The position numbers and the translations under genes are program-made. DNA of 62,809 nt, the filler included, from Clostridia bacterium (GTDB taxonomy: Bacteria; CBDUZB01; JAGLHV01), in NCBI GenBank assembly GCA_030637025.1. It is 7 parts of 7 records of this genome, joined end to end, with 100 filler letters (N's around TTAATTAATTAA, not from the genome) between each part and the next. Parts side by side here need not be neighbours in the genome. Positions count along the whole stretch, not along the records: positions 60,190 to 62,809 come from DAOVVV010000074.1; 6 more parts are not named here. One strand, written 5' to 3'. Position 1 is the first letter of the stretch, and each line of letters begins with the position of its first letter. Positions 1-62,809 of the stretch are shown here, one piece after another. The notes below the pieces were generated by a model. The model was given only the letters and a program-made list of their open reading frames with translations, was not told where the DNA came from and made no database searches.

Positions 1-691
1 CTATAGGTGTTTGTTGTATAGAAGATTGCTGATCGAGAGCTTGTTGGACTATGCTTTGTTCATCAACGGGTTGTTCAACAGAAGGTTGTTCGGGAACAAT
101 TTGTTCTGTTGGTGTTTGTTGTATAGAAGATTGCTGATCAAGAGCTTGTTGGACTATGTTTTGCTCATCAACGGGTTGTTCAACAGAAAGTTGTTCGGGA
201 ATAATTTGTTCTGTTGGTGGGGGTTCTATATTATTTTGTTTATCAGCAGGTTGTTGGTCATCCGGTTGTTCATCAATGGGTAAAATAGATTCTAAGGCCT
301 CTTTGACCTGTTGTATGTGAGAAGAAAAGCTTTCTTTTTTTTGGATTGTTTCCGGCTCAAGTATTTGTTTTATTCTCTCTTCTCGTTCTTTTTCTATCAA
401 CAGTTCTTTTACTTCGGTAGTTGTTTCTGTTTGTTCTTCCGGTGTTTTTTCTTGAGTTCCAATGGTTGGGTCCGGATCTTGTACCAGTTTTTCTTCCAGA
501 TAATCTACGATTTTTTTTAGCTGATTTTCTATGGGAAGGACATCTTCCGGATCTTTGTTTTTAATTGCATTGTCTTTTGTAGGAGGTTTATAAAAGACTT
601 TTATTTCTTCCTGGTCTTTGATGTCATTAGCGTCATTGTTATTATTATCGTTATTATTATCGTTATTATTATCGTTATTATTATCGTCCAT
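1..691 (-). CDS. Acidic low-complexity (Q/E/P-rich) protein, N-terminal part; runs off the window edge and is absent from the ORF track
   Basis: Manual translation from ATG at 691 (MDDNNNDNNN...KDQEEIKVFYKPP...) stays open to position 1. It has an upstream promoter and an AGGAGG, and both repeats are in frame. Confidence 0.8.
   Translation of the reverse strand, partial: MDDNNNDNNNDNNNDNNNNDANDIKDQEEIKVFYKPPTKDNAIKNKDPEDVLPIENQLKKIVDYLEEKLVQDPDPTIGTQEKTPEEQTETTTEVKELLIEKEREERIKQILEPETIQKKESFSSHIQQVKEALESILPIDEQPDDQQPADKQNNIEPPPTEQIIPEQLSVEQPVDEQNIVQQALDQQSSIQQTPTEQIVPEQPSVEQPVDEQSIVQQALDQQSSIQQTPI
6..218 (-). repeat. 105-bp (35-aa) coding tandem repeat, at least 2 copies
   Basis: GGTGTTTGTTGTATAGAAGATTGCTGATC recurs at 6 and 111. 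Unit PTEQI(I/V)PEQ(L/P)SVEQPVDEQ(N/S)IVQQALDQQSSIQQT. Confidence 0.9.
638..688 (-). repeat. 12-bp tandem repeat (GATAATAATAAC)x4 encoding DNNN
   Basis: Directly visible just after the start codon of the minus-strand ORF. Confidence 0.9.
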
Positions 692-815
692 TTTTTTTGT
701 ATACTTTAAAATAACAAATTTTAAACAGTATACTTTCCTCCTTTTTTAAAGTTTCCGGAAAACAGATATTTTAAAGACTAATATTTTATTAAATTAAATC
801 CAATAAGACAACATA

Positions 816-844
816 AATATACCATTCCTTTTCTATTTTGTCAA
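816..844 (-). promoter_or_regulatory. Sigma70-type promoter of the 691 ORF
   Basis: TTGACA-17 nt-TATATT with extended -10 TG on the minus strand. Confidence 0.7.
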
Positions 845-1053
845 GAAAATCAAAGAGTATTTTAAAAAGATAAATATTATGATTTTTGAAGAAGGGTAAT
901 TGTTTTTTAACAGAGTTAGTTTGTATTGAATTTTAATGATAAGAAAAAAGAAATTGGCTAATCCAAAATAATTTATTTATAGAGGAAACGTGCTTAAAAA
1001 GTAAAAGCCGGAATAATTTTTGGGAATTAGATATTTCTTAAGAGGAAAAGTAA

Positions 1054-1082
1054 TTGACAAGCATTAAATTTTATGTTAATTT
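1054..1082 (+). promoter_or_regulatory. Sigma70-type promoter upstream of dusB
   Basis: TTGACA-17 nt-TAATTT with extended TG. Confidence 0.5.
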
Positions 1083-1249
1083 ATAAAAAAAATAAAAGGC
1101 AGCTGGACATTTAAAGACTAAAAATTAAGTATAATTGTCTTTTAAAGTGTTTCTTTAGGTTATAAAAATAATTCTGTACAAGAAAAAGGTATTTTGATTG
1201 CGAAAATATTTATTTAAAGGAAAAAAAAGAATAAAAAAATTAATTTAGT

Positions 1250-1290
1250 ATCCAGAGATTTTAGAAAAAATCTTTGGATTTTTTCTTTTT
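1250..1290 (+). terminator. Intrinsic-terminator-like hairpin in the dusB leader
   Basis: ATCCAGAGATTT...AAATCTTTGGAT stem followed by a T-rich tract. Confidence 0.5.
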
Positions 1291-1308
1291 AATTAAGGGA
1301 TAAATAAT

Positions 1309-2274
1309 ATGTCTGAATTTAAAATAGGTAAACTTACGCTTAAAAACAATGTGCTTTTATCTCCGTTGGCAGGAATTTCAGATTTACCTTTTAGAATAAT
1401 AAACCGCCAATTTGGTTGTCAATTTGCTTTTACCGAAATGGTTGATGCCGCTTCCATTAAATATCGCAAAGGGGTAAAAATTTGCAAGCTGGAGACAATT
1501 CCGGAAGATAGCCCCTTAGGAAGTCAATTGTTAGGACAGGATGCCGGGATAATGCTGGAAGGGGCTTTATTTCTTCAAGACCGGGGAATAGATTTGATTG
1601 AAGTGAATGCTTCTTGTCCGGCGAGGAAGGTAATTAAAAAAAAAGCCGGTGCTTTTTTAATGAAAAACACAGGAAGATTAAAAGAGATATTAAAATTATT
1701 GGCTAAAAATCTTAAAGTACCGCTTACCCTGAAAATTAGAACCGGGTGGGATGATAACAGCCTTAATGCTGTAGAAGTTGCATTATTAGCCGAAGATTGT
1801 GGAATTGATGCTTTAGTTATTCACGGGCGCCATTGCCGGCAAGGACATCAGGGCCCGGTCAATTATGCATTGATTAAAGCAGTTAAAGAACGGTTAAGTA
1901 TTCCGGTAATTGGTAATGGAGGAATATGGTGCGGGAGAGATGCTCTGTTGATGTTTGAGCAAACCGGTTGTGATGGGATAATGATTGCCCGTGGTGCACT
2001 GGGAAATCCATGGATATTTAAAGAAATAGATGTTTTTTTAAGTCAGGGAATAATTTTACCCCGGCCAGGCTGGGATAAGGTAAAGGATACGCTAATTCAA
2101 CATTTGCATTTTTTAATTAATAAAGACGGGGTCCCTTTGGCTATTATTAAAATGAGAAAATTTTTTCGGTATTATCTTAAAAACCTTTCGGGAAGAAAAA
2201 AAATAGTTTCTCTCCTGGATAAAGCTAAATCAGAAGAAGAAGTAATTAGCATGCTTAATTCTCTGCAGGATTAA
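1309..2274 (+). CDS. dusB: tRNA-dihydrouridine synthase (DusB/NifR3 family)
   Basis: Motifs LSPLAGISDLPFR, NASCP, KIRTGWD, IHGR, GNGGI, MIARGALGNPWIF. Confidence 0.92.
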   Translation: MSEFKIGKLTLKNNVLLSPLAGISDLPFRIINRQFGCQFAFTEMVDAASIKYRKGVKICKLETIPEDSPLGSQLLGQDAGIMLEGALFLQDRGIDLIEVNASCPARKVIKKKAGAFLMKNTGRLKEILKLLAKNLKVPLTLKIRTGWDDNSLNAVEVALLAEDCGIDALVIHGRHCRQGHQGPVNYALIKAVKERLSIPVIGNGGIWCGRDALLMFEQTGCDGIMIARGALGNPWIFKEIDVFLSQGIILPRPGWDKVKDTLIQHLHFLINKDGVPLAIIKMRKFFRYYLKNLSGRKKIVSLLDKAKSEEEVISMLNSLQD

Positions 2275-2305
2275 AAGGTTATATGAAATTTATTATAAAA
2301 AATGT

Positions 2306-2334
2306 TGAATCGGGAAATATACTTTTGCATCTAA
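2306..2334 (+). promoter_or_regulatory. Possible autoregulatory ECF promoter
   Basis: TGAATC-16 nt-CATCTAA resembles TGAAAC-N16-CGTCTA-type ECF promoters and lies just upstream of the ECF gene. Confidence 0.3.
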
Positions 2335-2351
2335 ATAACTGAGGGGAAAAA

Positions 2352-2939
2352 ATGGTTGCAGATAAACAATTTTTAATTAAAAAATCCCAGGCAGGAGATT
2401 TACTTGCTTTTGAAGAATTAGTTAAGCGCTACGAAAAAAAGATTTATAATCTCGCCTGCCGGATAATGGGTAATCAGGAAGAAGCAAGCGATATTCTTCA
2501 GGAAACTTTTTTACAAGCTTTTCGTAAACTGGCAAGTTTTAGGGGAGAAGCTGATTTTTCTACCTGGCTATACCGTATAGCGGTTAATCTTTGTTTTATG
2601 AAAAAACGAAAGGGTAAAAAAATGAAAGTTTTTTCTCTGGATGCGCCTATTTTAACGGATACGGGGGATTTAAAAAAGGAAATTCCTGATAATTGGTCAA
2701 AAAACCCTTTAGCTTCTTTGGAGAACAAAGAATTAAAAGAGTATTTAAATAAAGCAATAAATCAACTTTCTCCGGAATATAAAACAGTATTTATCTTGCG
2801 GGATGTAGATAAATTATCTAACACGCAGGTGGCTAAAATTTTAAAGCTTTCCCTTTCTGCGGTTAAATCCCGTGTACATCGAGCGCGTTCTTTTTTACGG
2901 CATAAAATTTCATCGTATTTTAAAGAACATAAGGAGTGA
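2352..2939 (+). CDS. ECF RNA polymerase sigma factor (RpoE/SigW-like)
   Basis: Region 2 (DILQETFLQAFRKLASFRGEADFSTWLYRIAVN) and region 4 (SAVKSRVHRAR). Confidence 0.93.
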   Translation: MVADKQFLIKKSQAGDLLAFEELVKRYEKKIYNLACRIMGNQEEASDILQETFLQAFRKLASFRGEADFSTWLYRIAVNLCFMKKRKGKKMKVFSLDAPILTDTGDLKKEIPDNWSKNPLASLENKELKEYLNKAINQLSPEYKTVFILRDVDKLSNTQVAKILKLSLSAVKSRVHRARSFLRHKISSYFKEHKE

Positions 2940-2945
2940 AAATCA

Positions 2946-3185
2946 ATGGATTGTGAGGAATTATTTTTTATTTTATCCGATTACTTTGATCAGGAATTGG
3001 AAATGGAACTTTATGATGAAATGGAGGAACATATAAAGACTTGTTGTTATTGTGAGTTTTTGTTTGATACCTTTAGTAAAACACTGGAACTTTGTTCTGA
3101 GATGGAACAATTAGAAGTTTCGCCGGAAGTTCATTTAAGAATTATACAATTAATTCGTATAGAAATAGAAAATGACACAAGGTAA
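2946..3185 (+). CDS. Soluble zinc-binding anti-sigma factor (zf-HC2/ZAS)
   Basis: MDC...LSDYFDQEL...HIKTCCYC (HxxxCxxC); directly downstream of the ECF gene; no TM segment. Confidence 0.88.
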   Translation: MDCEELFFILSDYFDQELEMELYDEMEEHIKTCCYCEFLFDTFSKTLELCSEMEQLEVSPEVHLRIIQLIRIEIENDTR

Positions 3186-6827: not shown

Positions 6828-7238
6828 ATGTGTAATGAAAAAAAAGATGTTTTTAGTGGAAAAATTTGTGTAACGGCAGAGGATGGTAATTTGGATGCTC
6901 AGGTTGATCCTCGTTTTGGAAGGTGTCGGTATTTTATTATTATTACTCCTGAAACAATGGAATTTGAAGCAATAAAAAATCCTAATATGGAAGCAATGGG
7001 TGGGGCTGGTATTCAGTCAGGGCAGTTAGTGGCTGATAAAGGAGCAGAAGTTGTTTTAACCGGAAACATCGGACCAAATGCTTTTCAAACTTTACAGGCA
7101 GCGGGGGTTAAAGTTATTACCGGAGTAGAAGGGGAGATTAAGCAGGTAGTTTCCCGGTATAAGACAGGAGAATTAGTTCCTGATTCTAATCCCAATGTGG
7201 GGGAACACTTTGGAGTGCAGAAAAATAAAGACAAGTAA
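6828..7238 (+). CDS. NifB/NifX-family (FeMo-cofactor-binding-like) protein
   Basis: DPRFGRCRYF, GGAGIQ, GNIGPNAF motifs. Confidence 0.88.
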   Translation: MCNEKKDVFSGKICVTAEDGNLDAQVDPRFGRCRYFIIITPETMEFEAIKNPNMEAMGGAGIQSGQLVADKGAEVVLTGNIGPNAFQTLQAAGVKVITGVEGEIKQVVSRYKTGELVPDSNPNVGEHFGVQKNKDK

Positions 7239-7360
7239 TTATTAGACTGAAATAAGGATAATATTGTGGCAGCAGGTAATTAGATAAAATGTTATTTGCG
7301 GGGGATGTCTTTTTCATGGGGGGGGACCAAAGAATAGCGGGTTAGATTCCTTTTTTTCTC

Positions 7361-7389
7361 TTGACATTGATAAAGGATGTTTTTATAAT
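7361..7389 (+). promoter_or_regulatory. Perfect-consensus sigma70 promoter
   Basis: TTGACA-17 nt-TATAAT. Confidence 0.8.
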
Positions 7390-7457
7390 TAGAAAAAATC
7401 AGGAAAATTTATTTTTTGGTGTTATTGTGTGATGAGCAATCTATAATATAAATTTAT

Positions 7458-7493
7458 AAAAGACAGTCAGTTTTATACGGCTGTCTTTTTTTT
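7458..7493 (+). terminator. Intrinsic terminator about 100 nt after the 7361 promoter
   Basis: AAAAGACAGTC...GGCTGTCTTTT followed by a T run. Confidence 0.65.
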
Positions 7494-7558
7494 GTAGGAA
7501 GTTAAGTAATAATCAATAAAGTAAAGTTTTAATTTTGATAAATAAATATTATATTTAA

Positions 7559-7700
7559 AGAGTTCTGTAAAATACAATATTTTGTCATTCCGCTCCGCCT
7601 CAGGCGGATGATGCGGAATCTATAATTTTTTTAAATATCAATAGATTCCTGCTTTCGCAGGAATGACAATCAAGGTAAAAAGGCTATTTTGCAGAAGTTT
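7559..7700. mobile_element. MITE-like element carrying a GTCATTCC...GGAATGAC palindrome
   Basis: Imperfect terminal IRs (AGAGTTCTGTAAAATA / TATTTTGCAGAAGTTT) enclose GTCATTCCGC...GCGGAATCTAT and ATAGATTCCTGCTTTCGCAGGAATGAC, plus a TCCGCCTCAGGCGGA mini-palindrome. Confidence 0.6.
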
Positions 7701-7736
7701 AATTATATTGGAGAAAGAGAGGTTTTAAAAAAAGTA

Positions 7737-10162: not shown

Positions 10163-10256
10163 TCCTATCAAATAGTACAATCAATGTTTATTTTTTATTT
10201 TATAATTTAATGATTCATTTTTAAAGAAAACATTTTTAATATTTGTTGTAAATTCG

Positions 10257-10284
10257 TTGACAAAACGGAAATTTGTGCTATATT
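10257..10284 (+). promoter_or_regulatory. Sigma70 promoter upstream of the riboswitch
   Basis: TTGACA-16 nt-TATATT with extended TG. Confidence 0.65.
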
Positions 10285-10312
10285 TAAATTAGAAAAAGGA
10301 AATATGTAAACT

Positions 10313-10407
10313 TTAGTCCGAAAAGGCAAACCTCGAGTGATTGAGGGGCGCAAAGCTACGGAACTTAACTGGGTTACAAAATTGGTAAAGTTAGCCGAGC
10401 TACCGAA
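10313..10407 (+). ncRNA. c-di-GMP-I (GEMM) riboswitch aptamer
   Basis: GGCAAACC-stem-GTGA tetraloop-stem-GGGCGCAAAGC-TACGGAACTTAA...TAGCCGAGCTACCG matches the GEMM-I consensus. G at the Vc2 G20-equivalent position points to c-di-GMP rather than cGAMP. Confidence 0.9.
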
Positions 10408-10437
10408 AAAATACTTTTCCGGTAGGTCGGTTTTTTT
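10395..10437 (+). terminator. Riboswitch expression-platform terminator
   Basis: CCGAGCTACCG...CGGTAGGTCGG followed by T7; its 5' arm overlaps the aptamer 3' end. Confidence 0.85.
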
Positions 10438-10535
10438 ATATCCTGATATCCAGGGGAATTATAATACCTGGAATAGTCAAGGAGAAAGAGACAAATAAAG
10501 TATTATATGGTGGTTGAAAGAGGTATAACAAAAAA

Positions 10536-11090
10536 ATGGAATCAAAGATGATTAATATAATAAAAACAACTAAATTAACGGTAAGGGGTTCTTTATTATT
10601 TGTTTGTTTCTTAGGTGGTATATCTATATTTTCATTAGCGATGAATTCTACCAATTATACTCTTGATTGGGATGTAATTAATAGTGGGGGAGACGAGGGG
10701 AGTTCTACTAATTACCGGATAAATGTTTCTGTTGCTCAAGCTGCTATTGATTCAGCAGCAAGTACTAGTTATCAATTAGAAGCAGGCTACTGGTCCGGGC
10801 TTGCCGGTGAAGAGGCTATTTCTTATCAGACAGATAACCAGATAAAGAATAGTACTGAAGGAATTTATATTGGTAATGGTATTTATAATCTTGACGGAAG
10901 CAGTCAAACTAAAGCCCGGAATGTAAACAATAGCCAAACAGCAATTTATCATATTCGTATAGAAAACGACGGAAATAGCTCTGATACCTTTGTGGTTACC
11001 GGAACCGGAGGAGATATTAATTGGACGGTGACTTATTACGATGCCTTAAGCGGAGGGAGTAATATTACAGCTAATGTAACCGGGGGTGGA
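10536..11090 (+). CDS. Secreted surface protein with 145-aa repeat modules, 5' part (continues at 55676)
   Basis: Signal peptide, STNY..GG motifs; the 3' end matches 55676-55756 at 80/81 nt. Confidence 0.85.
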
Positions 11091-11190
11091 NNNNNNNNNN
11101 NNNNNNNNNNNNNNNNNNNNNNNNNNNNNNNNNNTTAATTAATTAANNNNNNNNNNNNNNNNNNNNNNNNNNNNNNNNNNNNNNNNNNNN
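11091..11190. other. Artificial contig linker
   Basis: N44-TTAATTAATTAA-N44 (stops in all frames). Confidence 0.99.
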
Positions 11191-12893
11191 TTAAATACTC
11201 TACCACCTATTTTAATCTGATAGATATATACCTTACCACTTACAACACACCCACTATTATCCCTACCATCCCAGATTAAAGATGTATTACTACTTGATGG
11301 TAAGTTATCTCTTACCACACTACCCGATAAATCAAATATCATTCCCTCAACTGTTTCATTATCAGGATTGGTAAAAATAAAATTAGCTATATCATTTATT
11401 CCATCCCCATTAGGAGTAATTATCTTAGGACTTAATTTAACAAAACGAGAATCTTCTTCCTCCTGGTAACCAATACTGTCTCTAATTTCAAAACCACTTG
11501 GCAACACCCCACTGGCTTCATCAATATTAGTTACCGTAATATCACTGGTTCCGGAAAAAGCATTATCATCAATGGTAACATTGGCTCGCAATTGAGTAGC
11601 ATTAATAAAATCAATGGAATTTATGGTTATTCCTATACCACTAAACATAACATCTACACCATTATAGAAATTTAAACCATTAACAACAACATCTAATGTT
11701 TCTCCGGGAAAAGCAAAAAAAGGAGAAAGAGAAAATAGCTGCGGAGGACCAAGATATTTTATGGTAAAATAATCCCAATTTGCTCCATTATCATTTCCCC
11801 CGGTGACAATAATATTATTATTATCATCACTTGTTACTCCCAACGCCCACTCAGTATTACCTCCATCATAGGTTGCCGAAGAAATAACTACTAAATTAGT
11901 ATCATATTTTATGGTAAAATAATCATCATTTGCTCCGTTATCACTATATCCAGCAACAATAATATTATTATTCCCATCTGTCGTTACTTTACTCGCGACA
12001 TCATGACTACCTCCATCATAAACAGCTGAAGTAATAACCACTAAATTACTATCATATTTTATGGTAAAATAATCATTATTTGCGCCATTATTACTACTTC
12101 CGGTAACAATAATATTATTATTACCATCTATCGTCACTCCATTCGCAAGATCATTATTCCCCCCATCATAAACTGCCGAAGAAAGAGCCACTAAACTATT
12201 ATCGTATTTTATGGTAAAATAATCCAAATTTACTACATTATAACTTCTTCCGGTGACAATAATATTATTGTTACTATCTGTCGTCACTCCACAGGCAAAA
12301 TCACTATTGCCTCCATCATAAGCTTCCGAAGAAATAAACACTAAACTACTATCATATTTTATGGTTAAATAATCACAATTTGTGCCATTATTCCTATATC
12401 CGACAACAATAATATTATTATTACTATCTATAGCCACTCCTTCCGCCTGATCATCATTACTCCCATCATAGATTGCCGAAGAAATAACCACTAAATTACT
12501 ATCATATTTTACGGTAAAATAATCCCAATTTGTTACGTTCCGGCTGTATCCAGTAACAATAATATTATTATTACCATCCACCGAAATTCCACGGTTCCAA
12601 TCACTAATACTTTCATCATAAACTGCCGAAACAATAACCACTAAATTACTATCATATTTTATGGTATAATAATCCCAATTTCCTCCATTGTCACTTTGCC
12701 CGGTAACAATAATATTATTATTACCATCTATTGTTATTCCACCCATATAATCAGCACTCCCTCCATCATAAGCTGCCGAAGAAATAGAAATCAATGTCCC
12801 TGCCCAAATTTTAACATTAAAAATAAACATAAAACCAACACTAACCAAAAAAAATAATCCCACTTTACAAAAATTTAAATATTTTCTTTTCAT
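11191..12893 (-). CDS. Secreted 7-repeat beta-propeller + Ig/IPT-like + CHU_C-type C-terminal domain protein, paralog 1 (3' end probably at 55391)
   Basis: Start MKRKYLNF with AGGAG; seven 50-aa YDGG..D...G...D.NNNIIVTG....NG.N.DYFTIKYDSNL repeats; ITPNGDGIND and WDGRD motifs. Confidence 0.88.
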
Positions 12894-58248: not shown

Positions 58249-59694
58249 ATGAATAATAAAATAATGGGGTGTAGAGTTAAAAAGTCAATAGGGAAGAAAT
58301 TAAAAGTAGTTGTTTTGTTTGTAACTTTTATAAGTGTTAATTATTTATTGTTAGACATTTCCCTTTATGCTGCAGTACCGCAAAGGATAAATTACCAGGG
58401 GAAATTAATGGATAATGCCGGCCAGCCGGTAAGTGACGGGAATTATAGTGTTACTTTTCGTATTTACAATGTATCTGTCGGCGGAGTTGTTTTGTGGAAT
58501 GAGACCCAGACAGCGAGTACGCAGGATGGATTATTCAATGTTATTTTAGGCTCGGTAAGTTCTATTAATTTAAGTTTTAATGAGGATTACTGGTTAGGGG
58601 TAGAGGTAGCAGGTGACGGGGAAATGAGTCCAAGGCATAGATTGGTGACTGTACCGTATAGTTTTCGTGCAGAAGATGCTAATGATTCCGATAGATTAAA
58701 CAGCCAGAGTGCCGGTTATTATCTTGATGCGGGAAATATTAATAGCGGGACTTTAAGTGATAGCCGTCTTTCCGCTAATGTAACTAAATTAGGTTTCAGC
58801 ATAGAAGCAATTGAAATTAGTCCGAATATAGTTTCCAGCATAGAGGGGGTAAGTAATGACGGAGGAAACATTGATTTAATAGCCGGGACGAATATGACTA
58901 TTACTCCGAATGATGCGGCAAATACGATTACTTTTGATGGCGTTGGAGGTGGAGATAATTTGGGCAATCACACAGCCACACAGAATATTCAGTTGAATGG
59001 TAATTATCTTTCCGGTGACGGGGGAAATGAAGGAATTTATGTCAACAATGATGGCAATGTTGGCATTGGGACGACAACCCCGAGTACAAAATTTCATGTT
59101 CAAGGTGGCGATGTTCTTTTTAAAGACCTATCTAATCTATTGCTAAAATTGGAATCAATCGCTCAAGAAGATACCTGGCTTATGTACAGAACCAATGGGA
59201 TTGATAGATGGAGCATTGGCGTGAGAGAATTTAATAATAGTCTCAGATTTACTCCTGGCTATTATACTAATTTTCCTTCTATGGTTATTAATACTTCAGG
59301 TAATGTTGGAATAGGAACAACGAATCCATTATACCCATTGCATATGGGAAATGGGGCATATTGTTCTGCTACTGGGGTATGGACAAATGCTTCGTCAAGA
59401 AAGTATAAGGAAAACATAACGAAATTGACTAAAGAAGAAGCAATTTCTGTATTGAAGCATCTTAATCCGGTGAAGTTTAATTATAAAATAGATAAAGAGG
59501 ATAAATATATTGGATTTATTAGTGAAGATGTTCCGGAACTGGTAGCTACAAAAGATAGAAAAGGATTATGTTCAATGGATATTGTAGGAGTTTTAACCAA
59601 AGCAGTTCAAGAATTACAAATTGAAGTTGAAAAATTAAATCAAAAAAATTTAGAATTGGAAGAGAAAATAAAGCAATTAGAAAGACAAAAATAA
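58249..59694 (+). CDS. Signal-peptide-bearing tail-fibre-like protein with a C-terminal intramolecular chaperone (peptidase S74-like)
   Basis: AVPQRINYQGKL N-domain, GNVGIGTT repeats, SSRKYKENI...GFISEDVPE...LTKAVQEL coiled coil. Confidence 0.85.
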   Translation: MNNKIMGCRVKKSIGKKLKVVVLFVTFISVNYLLLDISLYAAVPQRINYQGKLMDNAGQPVSDGNYSVTFRIYNVSVGGVVLWNETQTASTQDGLFNVILGSVSSINLSFNEDYWLGVEVAGDGEMSPRHRLVTVPYSFRAEDANDSDRLNSQSAGYYLDAGNINSGTLSDSRLSANVTKLGFSIEAIEISPNIVSSIEGVSNDGGNIDLIAGTNMTITPNDAANTITFDGVGGGDNLGNHTATQNIQLNGNYLSGDGGNEGIYVNNDGNVGIGTTTPSTKFHVQGGDVLFKDLSNLLLKLESIAQEDTWLMYRTNGIDRWSIGVREFNNSLRFTPGYYTNFPSMVINTSGNVGIGTTNPLYPLHMGNGAYCSATGVWTNASSRKYKENITKLTKEEAISVLKHLNPVKFNYKIDKEDKYIGFISEDVPELVATKDRKGLCSMDIVGVLTKAVQELQIEVEKLNQKNLELEEKIKQLERQK

Positions 59695-59720: not shown

Positions 59721-60089
59721 ATGAAAAGAATAAAAGAACCAATTATAAATAAATTGAAGAGTTTAGGCAGAATAAAATTAAAAACAGTTATTTTGCTTTT
59801 AGCCTTTATAAGTGTTGTTTATTTAATGTTGGTTATTTCCCTTTATGCTGCGGTACCGCAAAGGATAAATTACCAGGGGAAATTAATGGATAATGCCGGC
59901 CAGCCGGTAAGTGACGGGATTTATAGTGTTACTTTTCGTATTTACAATGTATCTGTCGGCGGAGTTGTTTTGTGGAATGAAAACCAGACAGCGAGTACAC
60001 AGGATGGATTATTCAATGTTATTTTAGGCTCGGTAAGTTCTATTAATTTAAGTTTTGACCAGGATTACTGGTTAGGGGTAGAAGTGGCC
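59721..60089 (+). CDS. Second tail-fibre-like paralog, 3'-truncated
   Basis: 59835-60088 is nearly identical to 58357-58610 (AVPQRINYQGKL domain). Confidence 0.85.
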
Positions 60090-60189
60090 NNNNNNNNNNN
60101 NNNNNNNNNNNNNNNNNNNNNNNNNNNNNNNNNTTAATTAATTAANNNNNNNNNNNNNNNNNNNNNNNNNNNNNNNNNNNNNNNNNNNN
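60090..60189. other. Artificial contig linker
   Basis: N44-TTAATTAATTAA-N44. Confidence 0.99.
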
Positions 60190-60190
60190 T

Positions 60191-60391
60191 GGATTGAAAG
60201 GGGAGGAAATTCCGCTTGGGGCAAGAATGATTGCCATAGCAGAGACGTTTGATGGTTTGACCTCTCAATGTTCTTTTTGTGTTCCTTTTTCCCGTAAGGA
60301 AGCAATTGATGTTTTAAAGAAAAATGCAGGGGGGCAACTGGATCCTGAATTAGTAGAAAAATTTATTGAAATAGTCGATAAAACTGTTTAA
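60191..60391 (+). CDS. 3' end of an HD-GYP-domain protein (degenerate motifs)
   Basis: GLKGEEIPLGARMIAIAETFDGLTS...AGGQLDPELVEKF. Confidence 0.8.
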   Translation, partial: GLKGEEIPLGARMIAIAETFDGLTSQCSFCVPFSRKEAIDVLKKNAGGQLDPELVEKFIEIVDKTV

Positions 60392-60572
60392 AGACATTTA
60401 TTTTCGTAAAAAAACGTATAAAAACGAAAAGAAAGATTTAATAGGATATAAATAAATATATTATAGCAAAAAATATTCTAAAGAAAATAAAAAATAGAAA
60501 CTCGGAAAATTGTGCAGTTTATAGACGGGAAAATTAGTTAAAAAATAAAAATAAAAAATATAAATTTTTTAC

Positions 60573-60601
60573 TTGACATCATTTTGAAGATTTGCTACTA
60601 T
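60573..60601 (+). promoter_or_regulatory. Sigma70 promoter of the PEP-CTERM locus
   Basis: TTGACA-17 nt-TACTAT with extended TG. Confidence 0.7.
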
Positions 60602-60829
60602 AAACCCGTAAGGATGAAGAATAAAAACATCTGAAGGAAGTGCCTTCCGAATTTTTGAATGTATCATTTTGTTTGTAAGAAGGAAGAAGATAATATCAAA
60701 GAGATTTAATTCCAAAAACAAAACATAAAGCATAAAATTCAACAATGAATGAAAGATAGATGTTTGTCAATTGTTGATAAATGTTTATGAAAGAAGTTTA
60801 TCTTGAGCAAAGAAAGGGGGTGAAAATAA

Positions 60830-61492
60830 ATGAAAAAAATAACTGCAGTTTTGTTGGCAACTCTTTTGGGAATGTTGATGGTAGTTGGGGGTGCTTCCGC
60901 GAGTTTGATTGGTCTTGATCTGGGTTTCCCTGATATACTCTCCAATACTTCCGGAGACTATTATTATGACTCAGGTTCACAACTTTTTACAACAGACGCA
61001 GAGGCCTTGCACATTACTTTTGACGGAATGAATTTGATTGATATTGATGACGGAACAAGACATGTCGCAAGCTATGCAGCAGCGTTTTATGTAGATAACT
61101 CCGGAAATTTTGTAAGTGGAGTAGCTGGTAACGACCTGGAGATTTATGGGAAATTTACCTACGGTAGTACTACTTATGACGGGCTCTTATTATCAGGAGA
61201 GGTTACTAATTTTGGATGGCAGAATCTTGTAGGTAAATATGCAATGTTTGACTTTACCTTTAATTTCACTGCTGGATTGTTAAGCGATTTCTATCCTGAT
61301 GGTGTCTTTGGTGGGGATGTTTTTTTAGCTGAAAATAGTACTTTTGCAGACAATTGGTGTATAGATCATTCCTCTGTTTACGGGGTGAAACATGATACTG
61401 CTCCTGTGATTCCCGAGCCGGCAAGTATGATGTTGTTTGGGACAGGTCTGGTTGGTTTGGTTGGTTTTGGTAAGAGAAAGTTTTTTAGTTAA
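60830..61492 (+). CDS. PEP-CTERM sorting-domain protein
   Basis: Signal peptide (ASA); C-terminal IPEPASMMLFGTGLVGLVGFGKRKFFS. Confidence 0.93.
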   Translation: MKKITAVLLATLLGMLMVVGGASASLIGLDLGFPDILSNTSGDYYYDSGSQLFTTDAEALHITFDGMNLIDIDDGTRHVASYAAAFYVDNSGNFVSGVAGNDLEIYGKFTYGSTTYDGLLLSGEVTNFGWQNLVGKYAMFDFTFNFTAGLLSDFYPDGVFGGDVFLAENSTFADNWCIDHSSVYGVKHDTAPVIPEPASMMLFGTGLVGLVGFGKRKFFS

Positions 61493-61624
61493 TAGCAACT
61501 AGGTTTGTTCTTTTATTTTATTAATTGGGGTGGGGTTGGATTTAAAGATTTACATCCGGCCCTGCCTCTGATAAGGTAAAAGTTTTAAAAAAGAAGTAAA
61601 AAATAATTAAAGGAAGTGATTAAA

Positions 61625-62809
61625 ATGGATATTTTTAAGAGTATAAAAATATCAATGGTTTTATCCAGTTTGGTAGTACTGTTTGTATGTATATTTTCTA
61701 ATATAGGATTTGCTGACCCGTCAATAATGCTTTATGTTGATGGAGGCTCTGATTATTATTATGATAATACTAAACCTATTCCAACAGATCCGACAATTAT
61801 TAATTATAGTGTGGATTTAGGTTTTAGTCTTATACCTACATCACCCGATGCATGGAATACTGATACTTTTGTTACAAATAGTTCTGCGTTTAGGTTCGTT
61901 ATTGCTACAGATAAATATGATTGGTTTTATGATATGCATTTGGTTGCTGCTGTACTGGAGGGAGAAACAGGAAGTCTTAATGTTTCTTGGGGAAGTACTG
62001 TATTATCCGGAACGATGTTTAACGGGACACCTACGATTACGGGTTATGGGAAGACCTATGTAATGCCTACTCATTCTGTATTTCCTACAGATTATCTCTT
62101 ATATAGCCTTGGGGATATTGAAAATGATGTAAATGAACCAATTTTTTTAGACATAACCTTTAGCGGTTATTCCAGGGTACATTTTGATGCGTTTGCCTAT
62201 AATGGGAAAAAATGGGATGACAATCCTTTTTCTCATGATGTGACTTCTACTGGGGAACCTATTCCTGAGCCGGGGACTCTTATTTTGTTTGGAACGGGAA
62301 TAATAGGTATGATTGGTAGTTTTGCCCGGAAAAGATTTAAGGAATTGAAACGATTTTTAGATGTGGTGTTTTCCGGTATAGGATTGGTTTTATTATCACC
62401 ATTGTTTTTATTTGTTGGGATATTAATAAAGTTAGATTCTAAAGGTTCTGTTTTTTATAAACAGATACGGGTAGGTGAAAATCAGAGAAAGAGTAGAACA
62501 GAAATAGAAGTAGGGCAGGAAGAACGGCGAAGAATTAATGCTCCGGGGCGTTTATTTATGGTGCATAAATTCAGGACAATGAAACTAGATGCAGAAACAA
62601 AAACCGGTCCTGTTTGGGCCAAAGAAGATGATACCCGAGTTACAAAAATAGGACATTTTTTAAGAAAAAGTCATCTGGATGAATTACCGCAATTGTTCAA
62701 TGTTTTTATCGGTGAGATGAGTTTAATAGGTCCAAGGCCGGAAAGGCCTGTATTTGTAGATAATTTTAAGAAGGTTATTCCTAAATATGATAAAAGATTA
62801 AAAGTGAAA
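61625..62809 (+). CDS. Fusion of a secreted domain, an internal PEP-CTERM and a priming phosphoglycosyltransferase (Bac_transf, WcaJ/PglC-like); runs off the window and is absent from the ORF track
   Basis: One open frame from ATG 61625: signal peptide, HSVFPT/VHFDAF/NPFSHD domain, IPEPGTLILFGTGIIGMIGSFARKRF at 62261, then KRFLDV...LSP...QIRVG...KFRTM...RVTKIG.FLRKSHLDELPQLFNV..GEMSLIGPRPERP. Confidence 0.9.
   Translation, partial: MDIFKSIKISMVLSSLVVLFVCIFSNIGFADPSIMLYVDGGSDYYYDNTKPIPTDPTIINYSVDLGFSLIPTSPDAWNTDTFVTNSSAFRFVIATDKYDWFYDMHLVAAVLEGETGSLNVSWGSTVLSGTMFNGTPTITGYGKTYVMPTHSVFPTDYLLYSLGDIENDVNEPIFLDITFSGYSRVHFDAFAYNGKKWDDNPFSHDVTSTGEPIPEPGTLILFGTGIIGMIGSFARKRFKELKRFLDVVFSGIGLVLLSPLFLFVGILIKLDSKGSVFYKQIRVGENQRKSRTEIEVGQEERRRINAPGRLFMVHKFRTMKLDAETKTGPVWAKEDDTRVTKIGHFLRKSHLDELPQLFNVFIGEMSLIGPRPERPVFVDNFKKVIPKYDKRLKVK

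Follow-up and report, generated by a model that had tools for sequence, protein, structure and literature searches.

A PEP-CTERM sorting signal placed internally, in frame with a monotopic phosphoglycosyl transferase, in a Clostridia bacterium genome

Genes and features of the locus

The window analysed in this study is a stretch of 62,809 nucleotides from a Clostridia bacterium genome, in which contigs were concatenated with N spacers, and its positions 60190-62809 are contig C41 (DAOVVV010000074.1; 2620 nt). The sequence before position 60190 is therefore no genomic neighbour of the gene described here. On this contig, a single open frame starts at 61616, or at the ATG at 61625, and gives 395 amino acids counted from that ATG. 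The 3' end of the frame is open because the contig ends inside the gene, and a 452-aa full-length copy from another assembly retains the fusion. The features of the locus are collected in Table 1.

Table 1. Features of the fusion gene and its surroundings (positions of the window unless a contig is named)
Feature	Position	Strand	Basis or remark
HTH + HD_5 (HD-GYP-type) regulator gene, 3' end	60190..60391	+	5' part on C7; marks the join of C7 (reverse complement) to C41
Canonical PEP-CTERM cargo protein, 220 aa	60830..61492	+	PF07589, 27.4 bits vs 20.7, aa 194-216
Fusion ORF	61625..62809	+	First 395 of 452 codons; contig end cuts the gene
Remaining codons of fusion ORF	C71 (L004 12111..12797)	-	
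Probable signal peptide (aa 1-30, cut ...NIGFA/DP)	61625..61714	+	Sequence reading: basic n-region, hydrophobic core, GFA
Choice-of-anchor-N ectodomain, beta-sandwich	61844..62245	+	NF038141 and AF2 models
Internal PEP-CTERM module: IPEP, TM helix, RKRF	62258..62338	+	PF07589 and TIGR02595 above cut-offs
Monotopic phosphoglycosyl transferase core (Bac_transf), N-terminal two thirds	62339..62809	+	PF02397, Foldseek, phmmer
Re-entrant membrane helix (KRFLD...SP...IKLDS)	62348..62437	+	Model helix aa 238-271, pLDDT 96-98
Basic insertion between RVG and GRLF (aa 285-309), subfamily trait	62477..62551	+	Alignment
Asp-Glu dyad D352-E353 (LDELPQ)	62678..62683	+	Invariant in 17/17 rows
P-R-P motif (aa 370-372)	62732..62740	+	Invariant in 17/17 rows

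The fusion architecture at 61625-62809 was confirmed as genuine. It would be an artefact if an assembly chimera or a sequencing frameshift had fused a PEP-CTERM gene to an adjacent transferase gene, and the window is indeed a patchwork of metagenome-assembled contigs in which the short contig C41 ends within the gene and its last ~380 bases represent a minor sequence variant. This explanation is nevertheless extremely improbable. Contigs assembled from four runs of two studies cross the fusion junction with 0 gaps, and no stop or indel was found between RKRF and KRFLD. Three of these runs are DNA (X1, a 3575-nt contig spanning 60900-62808; X2, 2987 nt, 61308-62808; X3, 1718 nt, 60998-62712), all from a single study, and may represent the source sample; the fourth is an RNA-library run (X5, 371 nt, 62149-62509), whose contigs are no proof of transcription. 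All four runs carry C71-like letters where C41 has the minor variant, and the overlap of C41 and C71 (512 nt at 94.5% identity) has an identical reading frame in both contigs. Moreover, diverged orthologues and other genomes carry the same fusion.

The N-terminal half has the probable build of an exported protein. The signal peptide proposed in the initial annotation is supported by its residue pattern and by orthologue conservation, with F24, S25, G28, F29, A30 and P32 invariant, and the predicted structure places a helix at aa 9-24. The following extracytoplasmic domain, which had been likened to choice-of-anchor N, matches NF038141 over aa 74-207 with 44.6 bits against a cut-off of 40, and strands occupy aa 82-199 in the AF2 models. 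Members of the choice-of-anchor N family otherwise bear C-terminal anchors, and a stand-alone homologue, P0002, which is 76% identical to the cargo domain of the fusion, scores 53.6 bits for choice-of-anchor N and has a canonical PEP-CTERM at its C-terminal end. The fold search with the ectodomain returned generic beta-sandwich matches only (pilin, adhesin and biofilm-matrix domains), from which no function follows; 4fx5_A came out on top (Z 9.2 and rmsd 3.6 over 113 aligned residues), RbmA reached Z 7.4, and the Foldseek matches to the FmlH lectin domain and iota-toxin Ib were weak.

A complete PEP-CTERM signal follows the ectodomain, and both profiles bear it out. PF07589 (cut-off 20.7) matches aa 212-236 with 24.4 bits, rising to 25.9 on the 452-aa copy, and TIGR02595 gives 22.3 bits on the fusion protein and 27.4 in the genome scan against a cut-off of 16. 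The tripartite build is present, namely IPEP, then GTLILFGTGIIGMIGSFA, then RKRF, and runs exactly from 62261 to 62338 (I213 to F238) as first annotated, with the predicted helix at aa 216-236. All 17 aligned rows, which were picked for having PEP, share P214, E215 and P216. The canonical PEP-CTERM gene reported upstream of the fusion was also recovered, and the tail of its product is 46% identical to the internal tag. Like canonical PEP-CTERM cargo of the EpsH/XrtA type, as outlined in passages of Haft et al. 2006 (PMC1569441), the fusion has a signal peptide, a variable exported domain, PEP, a helix and a basic cluster; it scores above both curated cut-offs, and an exosortase and EpsI belong to the same locus. 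Unlike such cargo, it does not carry the tag at the extreme C-terminus, and 214 enzyme residues follow. A passage of the same paper reports that 87% of PEP-CTERM proteins have fewer than 10 residues beyond the domain.

The C-terminal part is a monotopic phosphoglycosyl transferase (PGT) core with the Asp-Glu dyad and GPRP (62729-62740) that had been recognised in the sequence. PF02397 (cut-off 27) scores 141 bits on the ORF as truncated by the contig end and 200 on the 452-aa copy, phmmer matches the core to WbaP and PglC chains, and Foldseek aligns it to PglC 8e37_A (E 5.3e-13, TMt 0.76) and to WbaP 8t53_A (rmsd 1.9 across 208 columns). Among the 17 aligned family members, D246 and P259 of the re-entrant helix and G369-P372 are invariant. 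The D352-E353 pair is presumably the catalytic dyad, a role taken from the established PglC/WbaP mechanism, and we likewise take the re-entrant helix with its proline break and the PRP motif to act as they do in monotopic PGTs. The core, the ectodomain, the TM helix and the re-entrant helix all fit the AF2 model.

The fusion resembles the small PGTs such as PglC of Campylobacter in its catalytic core, proline-broken re-entrant helix, Asp-Glu dyad and PRP. However, PglC begins at the re-entrant helix, whereas the fusion has 241 residues ahead of it, including a membrane-spanning helix and an exported domain. Also unlike PglC, it carries the 25-residue basic insertion after RVG, which has low pLDDT in the model and occurs in 12 of the 17 aligned PEP-bearing relatives and in the G022 homologue, which lacks PEP. 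Among NCBIfam models, the fusion matches best to the C-terminal catalytic halves of the large WbaP/WcaJ, TIGR03025 and TIGR03013 (EpsB_2) families, and, judged by homology and locus, it would, like these enzymes, prime synthesis at an EPS locus that includes an exosortase. Unlike the large PGTs, it stays below the respective cut-offs (TIGR03025 EPS_sugtrans, 271.0 vs 295.55; TIGR03023 WcaJ, 234.1 vs 410.75; TIGR03013 EpsB_2, 228.3 vs 393.35). Their four-helix N-terminal bundle is missing: a Pfam scan of the fusion protein returned PF07589 and PF02397 only, with PF13727 absent, and the model shows a single helix before the core.

Conservation and distribution of the fusion

The same domain order was found in other genomes. 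The orthologues P0003 and P0004 keep the fusion and are 57-59% identical over the N-terminal 240 aa; the junction, IPEPGTL[IL]LFGTG..GMIGSFARKRF.E.KR.LD, is nearly invariant among orthologues, whereas the ectodomain diverges. These orthologues also bear on the possibility that one frame gives two products, the transferase being translated also or mainly from an internal ATG (M229, MIGSFARKRF...) and the long frame reflecting a cargo gene that reads through into a distinct gene for a small transferase. The in-frame ATG lies within the tag helix and is conserved in P0003 and P0004, and an ORF caller would start there on C71 (224 aa). Nevertheless, this explanation is very unlikely: the orthologues, at that degree of divergence, have no stop between the two parts, Met is absent at this position in other members (e.g. 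P0013, P0014 and P0017), a product starting at M229 would miss half of the helix, and our reading of the sequence located no clear ribosome-binding site at the usual distance ahead of the ATG.

A junction of the form "PEP + 25 residues + KRxxD" was found in 14 further diverged transferases, all of one clade. The family survey comprised 151 rows (P0001, P0003, P0004 and 148 of the top 150 phmmer matches), and PEP stands at a fixed distance before KRxxD in 17 of them, a count from a top-150 list that favours tag-bearing matches, as the query contained the tag. PF07589 matched 16 of the 17 PEP rows at E <= 0.1, 7 of them above the cut-off, and none of the 13 PEP-less rows scanned. In the tree, one 62-row set (SH-aLRT 95) holds 17/17 PEP rows, 2/2 PEP-like rows and 15/16 rows with a TM helix only; none of the 89 rows of the survey outside this set has PEP.

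Many members of the family have merely a spacer of ~50 residues, or almost nothing, ahead of PEP, and it is therefore PEP-TM-PGT that forms the conserved unit; in the fusion, the cargo domain of 180 aa is an extra and not what the design is about. The short-spacer proteins of loci L050, L051 and L052 share the junction and the clade with the fusion, and downstream of their genes come those for PEP-CTERM cargo and for a membrane protein of 290 aa that has a homologue at the fusion locus. They differ in having only a signal peptide and the spacer before PEP, where the fusion has a complete cargo-type domain, and in lying directly after EpsI, where the fusion stands three genes further downstream. 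A full-size cargo domain is thus the distinctive feature of the window's family member. To judge from the sequences, the choice-of-anchor-N domain was probably acquired via recombination with a cargo gene at the common PEP-CTERM sequence. That the tag derives from genuine cargo is supported by P0002 and by the seven canonical PEP-CTERM genes that neighbour the fusion in G273.

Further searches defined the range of the architecture. In a profile search of 401 genomes, eight of the 150 matches listed (576 further matches followed) start at model position <=90, and among these eight listed matches, with G255 and G095 left out, PEP fusions occur in G000 and G273 only; the early-start match of G156 was inspected and has no PEP, and G174, G094 and G061 gave no TIGR02595 match. 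The N-terminal alignment A2 yielded 78 pattern matches in metagenome_contigs and 11 in genome_contigs, none confirmed as a relative. A word-index search with residues 205-300 gave 18 matches, of which only the three known ones are fused, a number set by the shared-word limit and no measure of family size. No description of the architecture was found in the literature searched.

Within the same clade, PEP is degraded (PEV, PEA) in the two PEP-like rows and absent in the 15 TM-only rows, while the helix and an RKRY-type basic cluster are kept. This loss in close relatives favours the explanation that the PEP-CTERM-like segment is left over from an ancient fusion, is neither bound nor cut by the exosortase, and now functions purely as the single TM helix tethering a periplasmic domain to a small transferase; the ectodomain would then be a periplasmic sensor or scaffold, comparable to the multi-helix N-terminal domain of WbaP/WcaJ. 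A statement in Haft et al. 2006 (PMC1569441) that PEP-CTERM copies distant from the C-terminus may be non-functional is in line with it. We regard such a purely anchoring segment as somewhat unlikely, though by no means negligible. Against it stand the constant spacing of P-E-P in 17 diverged proteins, the tag being far better conserved than the ectodomain among orthologues, and the seven rows above Pfam's curated cut-off; moreover, a PEP motif is superfluous for a plain anchor.

Exosortase and the genomic setting

The initial annotation looked to an exosortase in the genome, and one is encoded there (TIGR02602, 167.7 bits vs a cut-off of 105.55; PF09721, 199.6 bits). It adjoins EpsI (TIGR02914, 107.5 bits) within a glycosyltransferase cluster, which has no transferase of its own within the 16 kb examined. 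The reverse complement of C7:1-141 equals C41:1-141 at 100% identity, in a stretch that is unique within the genome, and the frame of the HD-GYP gene is continuous through this join, with PF13487 matching positions 119-170 on the C41 part and 6-162 on C7 3..755(-). By this exact contig-end overlap and the read-through, the fusion is placed 5419 nt downstream of the exosortase on the same strand, a tighter genomic link than was visible to the initial annotation. The 288-aa membrane protein downstream of the fusion also occurs in L051 (E 2e-31). In a side observation, P0003 and the exosortase homologue P0179 both have a longest contig of 31,890 nt, a mere hint that they lie on the same contig.

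In the scan of reference-genome loci (query, the 5-row alignment A7), PEP and TM precede the transferase in 6 of the 80 loci kept. An exosortase lies within the locus (10 kb) in 4 of these 6 and in 0 of the 74 others, a contrast confounded by taxonomy, since the PEP-less loci are mostly from Bacteroidota/Haemophilus and kin are not independent. In G156, a PEP-less small transferase also adjoins an exosortase. The gene order in L050 and L051 is GT2, exosortase, EpsI (TIGR02914, 84-86 bits), PEP-PGT and then PEP-CTERM cargo genes; that PEP-PGT genes in several lineages directly follow exosortase-EpsI and precede cargo genes argues against an anchor without any tie to sorting. Two observations point the other way. 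The fusion of G273 (98% complete) is flanked by seven canonical PEP-CTERM genes, and no exosortase was detected in this genome with PF09721 or TIGR04178. Conversely, the same-genus genomes G001 and G003 possess an exosortase, and a search of G001-G003 (97, 89 and 86% complete) did not turn up the fusion, which indicates that the fusion is not essential to the exosortase system.

A complex prediction weakly suggests contact between the exosortase and residues 200-452 of the fusion. The pair scored 0.40, and three controls, which were unrelated proteins and probably not membrane helices, reached 0.00 at best; contacts agreed at >=69% between runs, with a partner pLDDT of >=71. In the calibration, 116 of 157 solved complexes reached the score mark, as did 2 of 215 mismatched pairs, and the band <=0.60, in which our score falls, held only 18 of the 157 solved complexes yet both passing mismatches.

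A proposed coupling of protein sorting to glycan priming

On balance, we favour the reading that the fusion gene is real and under selection and encodes a priming enzyme coupled to an exosortase. The signal peptide would route the beta-sandwich domain at the N-terminus through the inner membrane, and the PEP-CTERM helix would halt transfer and act as the anchor, oriented with PEP on the outer side of the membrane and RKRF on the inner side. After another three residues, the PglC-like re-entrant helix is predicted to dip into the cytoplasmic leaflet, which would place the catalytic domain with D352-E353 on the cytoplasmic side. The arrangement put forward initially, with the cargo outside and the enzyme inside, is thus coherent as far as the predicted structure and the fold comparison, which agree, can indicate. 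By homology and locus, the enzyme may put the first sugar-1-phosphate onto undecaprenyl phosphate, and the product polysaccharide may be the one made by the glycosyltransferase genes beside exosortase/EpsI. The internal PEP-TM-basic module could be the handle recognised by the exosortase of the locus, docking the priming enzyme at the sorting machine. Cleavage by this exosortase would most likely occur at PEP, freeing the ectodomain as ordinary cargo and leaving a transferase anchored by one helix; the leaving group would then be a whole transferase, whereas in canonical cargo it is a peptide of ~20 residues. Protein sorting may thereby determine the place, timing or dose of the first step of polymer synthesis. 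The initial annotation had likewise proposed that such cleavage could free the cargo and activate the priming step or couple it to sorting.

A further-reaching proposal, which we consider unlikely, is that the exosortase acts as a transpeptidase from protein to glycolipid, with the PEP-PGT, delivered to it as the leaving group when cargo is sorted, as its built-in supplier of the acceptor. If this were true, the cargo would be moved onto the undecaprenyl-diphosphate-linked glycan just primed by the same transferase, one enzyme molecule would be used per cut, polymer starts would be tied 1:1 to cargo export, and the fusion might reveal the function of exosortase.

The way in which exosortases act on their substrates, and the constant company of polysaccharide genes, are still largely inferential twenty years after the system was defined, and Haft et al. 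2006 (PMC1569441) in one passage ask for experiments on exosortase/PEP-CTERM. In the window's member, a cargo domain that can be recognised as such is joined to an enzyme that is well understood and has a standard assay; this protein would be a handy reporter, since a single polypeptide would allow cleavage, docking and activity to be followed. For annotation, these genes are named simply 'sugar transferase' or 'polyprenyl glycosylphosphotransferase', and no Pfam or NCBIfam model covers the architecture. One conserved protein that carries both a sorting tag and a priming enzyme may serve as a Rosetta-stone link between protein sorting and the initiation of polysaccharide synthesis.

Reading frame and anatomy of the fusion gene

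The window consists of metagenome-assembled contigs with N runs between them, and the fusion gene, which joins a signal peptide, a choice-of-anchor N domain, an internal PEP-CTERM tag and a phosphoglycosyl transferase (PGT) core, lies on contig C41. The motifs IPEP...RKRF (62261-62338), LDELPQ and GPRP described in the initial annotation were exact in the sequence, as were its coordinates. Moreover, the upstream gene (60830-61492), described there as canonical, encoded an ordinary PEP-CTERM protein by Pfam, the tail of which was 46% identical to the internal tag of the fusion. In NCBIfam, the families of large transferases matched the fusion by the catalytic half alone, with scores below their cut-offs.

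Features of the fusion gene, supporting contigs and neighbouring genes
Feature	Position	Detail
Contig C22	window 11191-41510	
Contig C41	window 60190-62809	2620 nt; carries the fusion
Fusion ORF	window 61625 (ATG) to window end (+)	395 codons, stop-free (ORF listing)
Choice-of-anchor N	fusion aa 74-207	44.6 bits, cut-off 40 (NCBIfam)
PEP-CTERM PF07589	fusion aa 212-236	24.4 bits, cut-off 20.7 (Pfam)
TIGR02595	fusion ORF	22.3 bits, cut-off 16 (NCBIfam)
Bac_transf core	fusion ORF	141 bits (Pfam)
Arg/Lys-rich insertion	window 62477-62551	25 residues, between RVG and the KFRTM strand of the core
Signal helix	aa 9-24	AF2
Beta-sandwich	aa 82-199	AF2
Linker	PEP motif	AF2, low confidence
Helix	aa 216-236	AF2
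Re-entrant region helix	aa 238-271	AF2, pLDDT 96-98
Run X1 contig, 3575 nt	window 60900-62808	spans junction
Run X2 contig, 2987 nt	window 61308-62808	spans junction
Run X3 contig, 1718 nt	window 60998-62712	spans junction
Run X5 contig, 371 nt	window 62149-62509	RNA library, second study; not proof of transcription
T9SS-type tail	L017 (C7) 1232-3184 (-)	
T9SS-type tail	L004 (C71) 10235-11932 (-)	
T9SS-type tail	L004 (C71) 303-3032 (-)	assigned by eye from tail
Multi-pass membrane protein, ~290 aa	L004 (C71) 6839-7705 (-); L051 12329-13198 (+)	no Pfam family; downstream of PEP-PGT/cargo cluster

The end of contig C71 carries a 512-nt copy of the fusion gene with 94.5% identity to C41, which is open to the contig end (GIIGMIGSFARKRF...) and provides the C-terminus absent from C41. 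A 452-aa copy, P0001, also occurs in the protein database. The orthologues P0003 (458 aa) and P0004 (459 aa) were 59% and 57% identical, respectively, within the N-terminal 240 residues. Each of the three proteins is annotated with PF07589 and PF02397, and their alignment showed an almost invariant junction and a diverged ectodomain. The uninterrupted frame proposed earlier was upheld by contigs of public sequencing runs, which span RKRF-KRFLD with no stop or frameshift and 0 insertions or deletions. Runs X1-X3, from a single study, may represent the source sample. In all runs, C71-like letters were present at window 62431-62772, which indicated that the C41 tail represents a minor variant with an unchanged frame.

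The AF2 model of the fusion (mean pLDDT 77.8) contained a confident catalytic core, the fold of which resembled PglC (8e37_A, E 5.3e-13, TMt 0.76) and WbaP (8t53_A) in Foldseek, in agreement with the sequence search. The ectodomain folded alone (pLDDT 75) bore only a generic likeness to pilin, adhesin and matrix beta-sandwiches (best Z 9.2). The basic insertion was disordered in the model. Of the 17 PEP-bearing relatives, 12 share it, as does a PEP-less homologue (L006 1327-2253 (-)).

At window 60100-60190, contigs are stitched by N runs around the 'ttaattaattaa' linker, and genes across spacers are not genomic neighbours. Two adjacent ORFs (58249-59694 and 59721-60137) have a near-identical N-terminal region of ~100 residues (AAVPQRINYQGKLMDNAGQPVSDG...); the former ends in a coiled-coil-like tail, and the latter is truncated by the contig end.

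The exosortase locus of the source genome

The exosortase on which the initial annotation had made its reading depend was present as a single gene (PF09721, 199.6 bits; TIGR02602, 167.7 bits versus 105.55), adjoined by EpsI (TIGR02914, 107.5 bits). Around them on contig C7 lie GT2 and GT4 glycosyltransferases, an O-antigen-ligase-like protein, a deacetylase and an acetyltransferase, and no phosphoglycosyl transferase was found in the 16 kb examined. Only six PEP-CTERM matches were obtained genome-wide, four of them on C41 and C71.

The first ORF of C7 (3-755 (-)) encodes HTH and HD_5 domains (profile positions 6-162) and runs off the contig start, and C41 begins with HD_5 profile positions 119-170. 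The reverse complement of C7:1-141 was 100% identical to C41:1-141 and absent elsewhere in the genome, and the frame of the HD-GYP protein was continuous across the join. Because this exact 141-nt overlap is unique and the reading frame uninterrupted, the reverse complement of C7 was placed before C41. The resulting order, on one strand in window orientation, is as follows: glycosyltransferase genes, exosortase, EpsI, a 650-aa protein with a T9SS-type tail, the HD-GYP regulator, a PEP-CTERM protein, the fusion gene, a 565-aa repeat protein, two PEP-CTERM proteins and a 288-aa membrane protein. Between the exosortase end and the fusion start lie 5419 nt. The position of the HTH and HD-GYP-type (HD_5) regulator, with exosortase/EpsI on one side and the PEP-CTERM genes on the other, may indicate that the locus is controlled by c-di-GMP.

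Genes for T9SS-type C-terminal tails are interleaved with the PEP-CTERM genes (two scanned scored above the TIGR04183 cut-off), so that two different C-terminal sorting systems stand side by side in one locus. At its other end, the first 141 nt of C71 (1-141) match C40 exactly, and largely also C75 and C74; this segment is a repeat or an assembly-graph branch point.

Distribution of PEP-bearing transferases

When 1.84 billion cluster representatives were searched with P0001 by HMMER, 57,751 matched at E <= 0.001. The 151 rows examined were P0001, P0003, P0004 and 148 of the best 150 matches, a set biased towards tag-bearing matches because the query contained the tag. The 150th match, P0002, was without a transferase domain. 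Homologues with the architecture described earlier do exist: besides P0003 and P0004, further PEP-bearing transferases were found, and in 17 of the 151 rows PEP stood at a constant distance before KRxxD, separated by 25 residues comprising the helix and an RKRF/RKRY-type basic cluster. The helix alone was retained in 16 rows, and 116 had neither PEP, a PEP-like motif nor the helix. With Pfam, PEP-CTERM was matched at E <= 0.1 in 16 of the 17 PEP rows (7 above cut-off) and in none of the 13 PEP-less rows scanned. The N-terminal regions were diverse, with PEP at residues 2 to 266, a PKD domain in one protein and only a short spacer in several.

In a catalytic-core tree of the 151 rows, every PEP and PEP-like row (17 and 2) fell within one 62-row set (SH-aLRT 95), together with 15 of the 16 helix-only rows, and PEP occurred in none of the 89 rows outside it. 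Within the set, the trait was scattered (11 changes), a pattern consistent with an old PEP-TM-PGT design that decayed repeatedly, or with a trait gained more than once.

In a scan of species-representative genomes, the best 80 of 410 relatives were retained, and six loci, labelled Omnitrophota (two), Planctomycetales, Planctomycetaceae and Elusimicrobiales (two), had PEP and the helix at the canonical place. A profile built from 50 exosortase homologues matched in four of these six, one of the other two being a contig of only 4.8 kb, and in 0 of the other 74, a contrast that is confounded by taxonomy and by kin that are not independent. In loci L050 and L051, the order was GT2, exosortase, EpsI (TIGR02914, 84-86 bits), the tagged transferase (PEP-PGT; 293 and 290 aa, ~50-residue spacer) and then PEP-CTERM cargo genes. 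The cargo genes of L051 are followed by a 290-aa homologue (29% identity, E 2e-31) of the 288-aa membrane protein of C71; common to the source genome and an Omnitrophota-labelled one, this protein may be an unrecognised system component. PEP-less small transferases also adjoin exosortases, for example in genome G156. The fusion was not found in three same-genus genomes (fragmented assemblies), two of which have an exosortase. The 59%-identical fusion orthologue P0003 and a 76%-identical exosortase homologue, P0179, may lie on one contig, since the longest contig given for each is 31,890 nt.

Implications of the internal tag

Haft et al. (2006; PMC1569441) considered that PEP-CTERM segments lying well away from the C-terminus may lack function. 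The fusion was unmentioned in the passages covered of that paper and of the epsSMASH preprint, and no description of it was found among the listed matches from the open full-text literature on PEP-CTERM/exosortase and on phosphoglycosyl, monotopic or sugar transferases.

The fusion ectodomain is 76% identical to P0002, a canonical PEP-CTERM protein that stands alone. By sequence, this large ectodomain is a cargo-type domain, probably acquired via recombination at the shared tag sequence. The pattern was alike in genome G273, the only one of 401 diverse genomes to show a clear fusion (485 aa) among the listed matches of a profile search; a paralogous cargo gene is adjacent, and seven canonical PEP-CTERM genes follow in tandem (L049, C45 4360-11323). 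No exosortase was found in G273 (98% complete) with PF09721 or TIGR04178, and the motif was degraded to PEV or PEA in 2 of the 151 rows, within the clade. Both observations favour the main alternative, that the tag is now merely an anchor, which we consider rather unlikely.

While the anatomy of the fusion is established, its mechanism is what we infer. Judged from sequence comparison, tag and enzyme are a conserved unit, sited after exosortase-EpsI and before the cargo genes, and this placement suggests that the exosortase recognises the priming enzyme. When the exosortase was modelled in complex with fusion residues 200-452, the prediction was weakly supportive, with a score of 0.40 (best of three controls 0.00). 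Among 157 solved complexes, 116 passed the mark, 18 of them at <= 0.60; among 215 mismatched pairs, 2 passed, both at <= 0.60. The runs had at least 69% contact agreement and a partner pLDDT of at least 71. Such recognition of the priming enzyme would consist of docking, or of cleavage at PEP.
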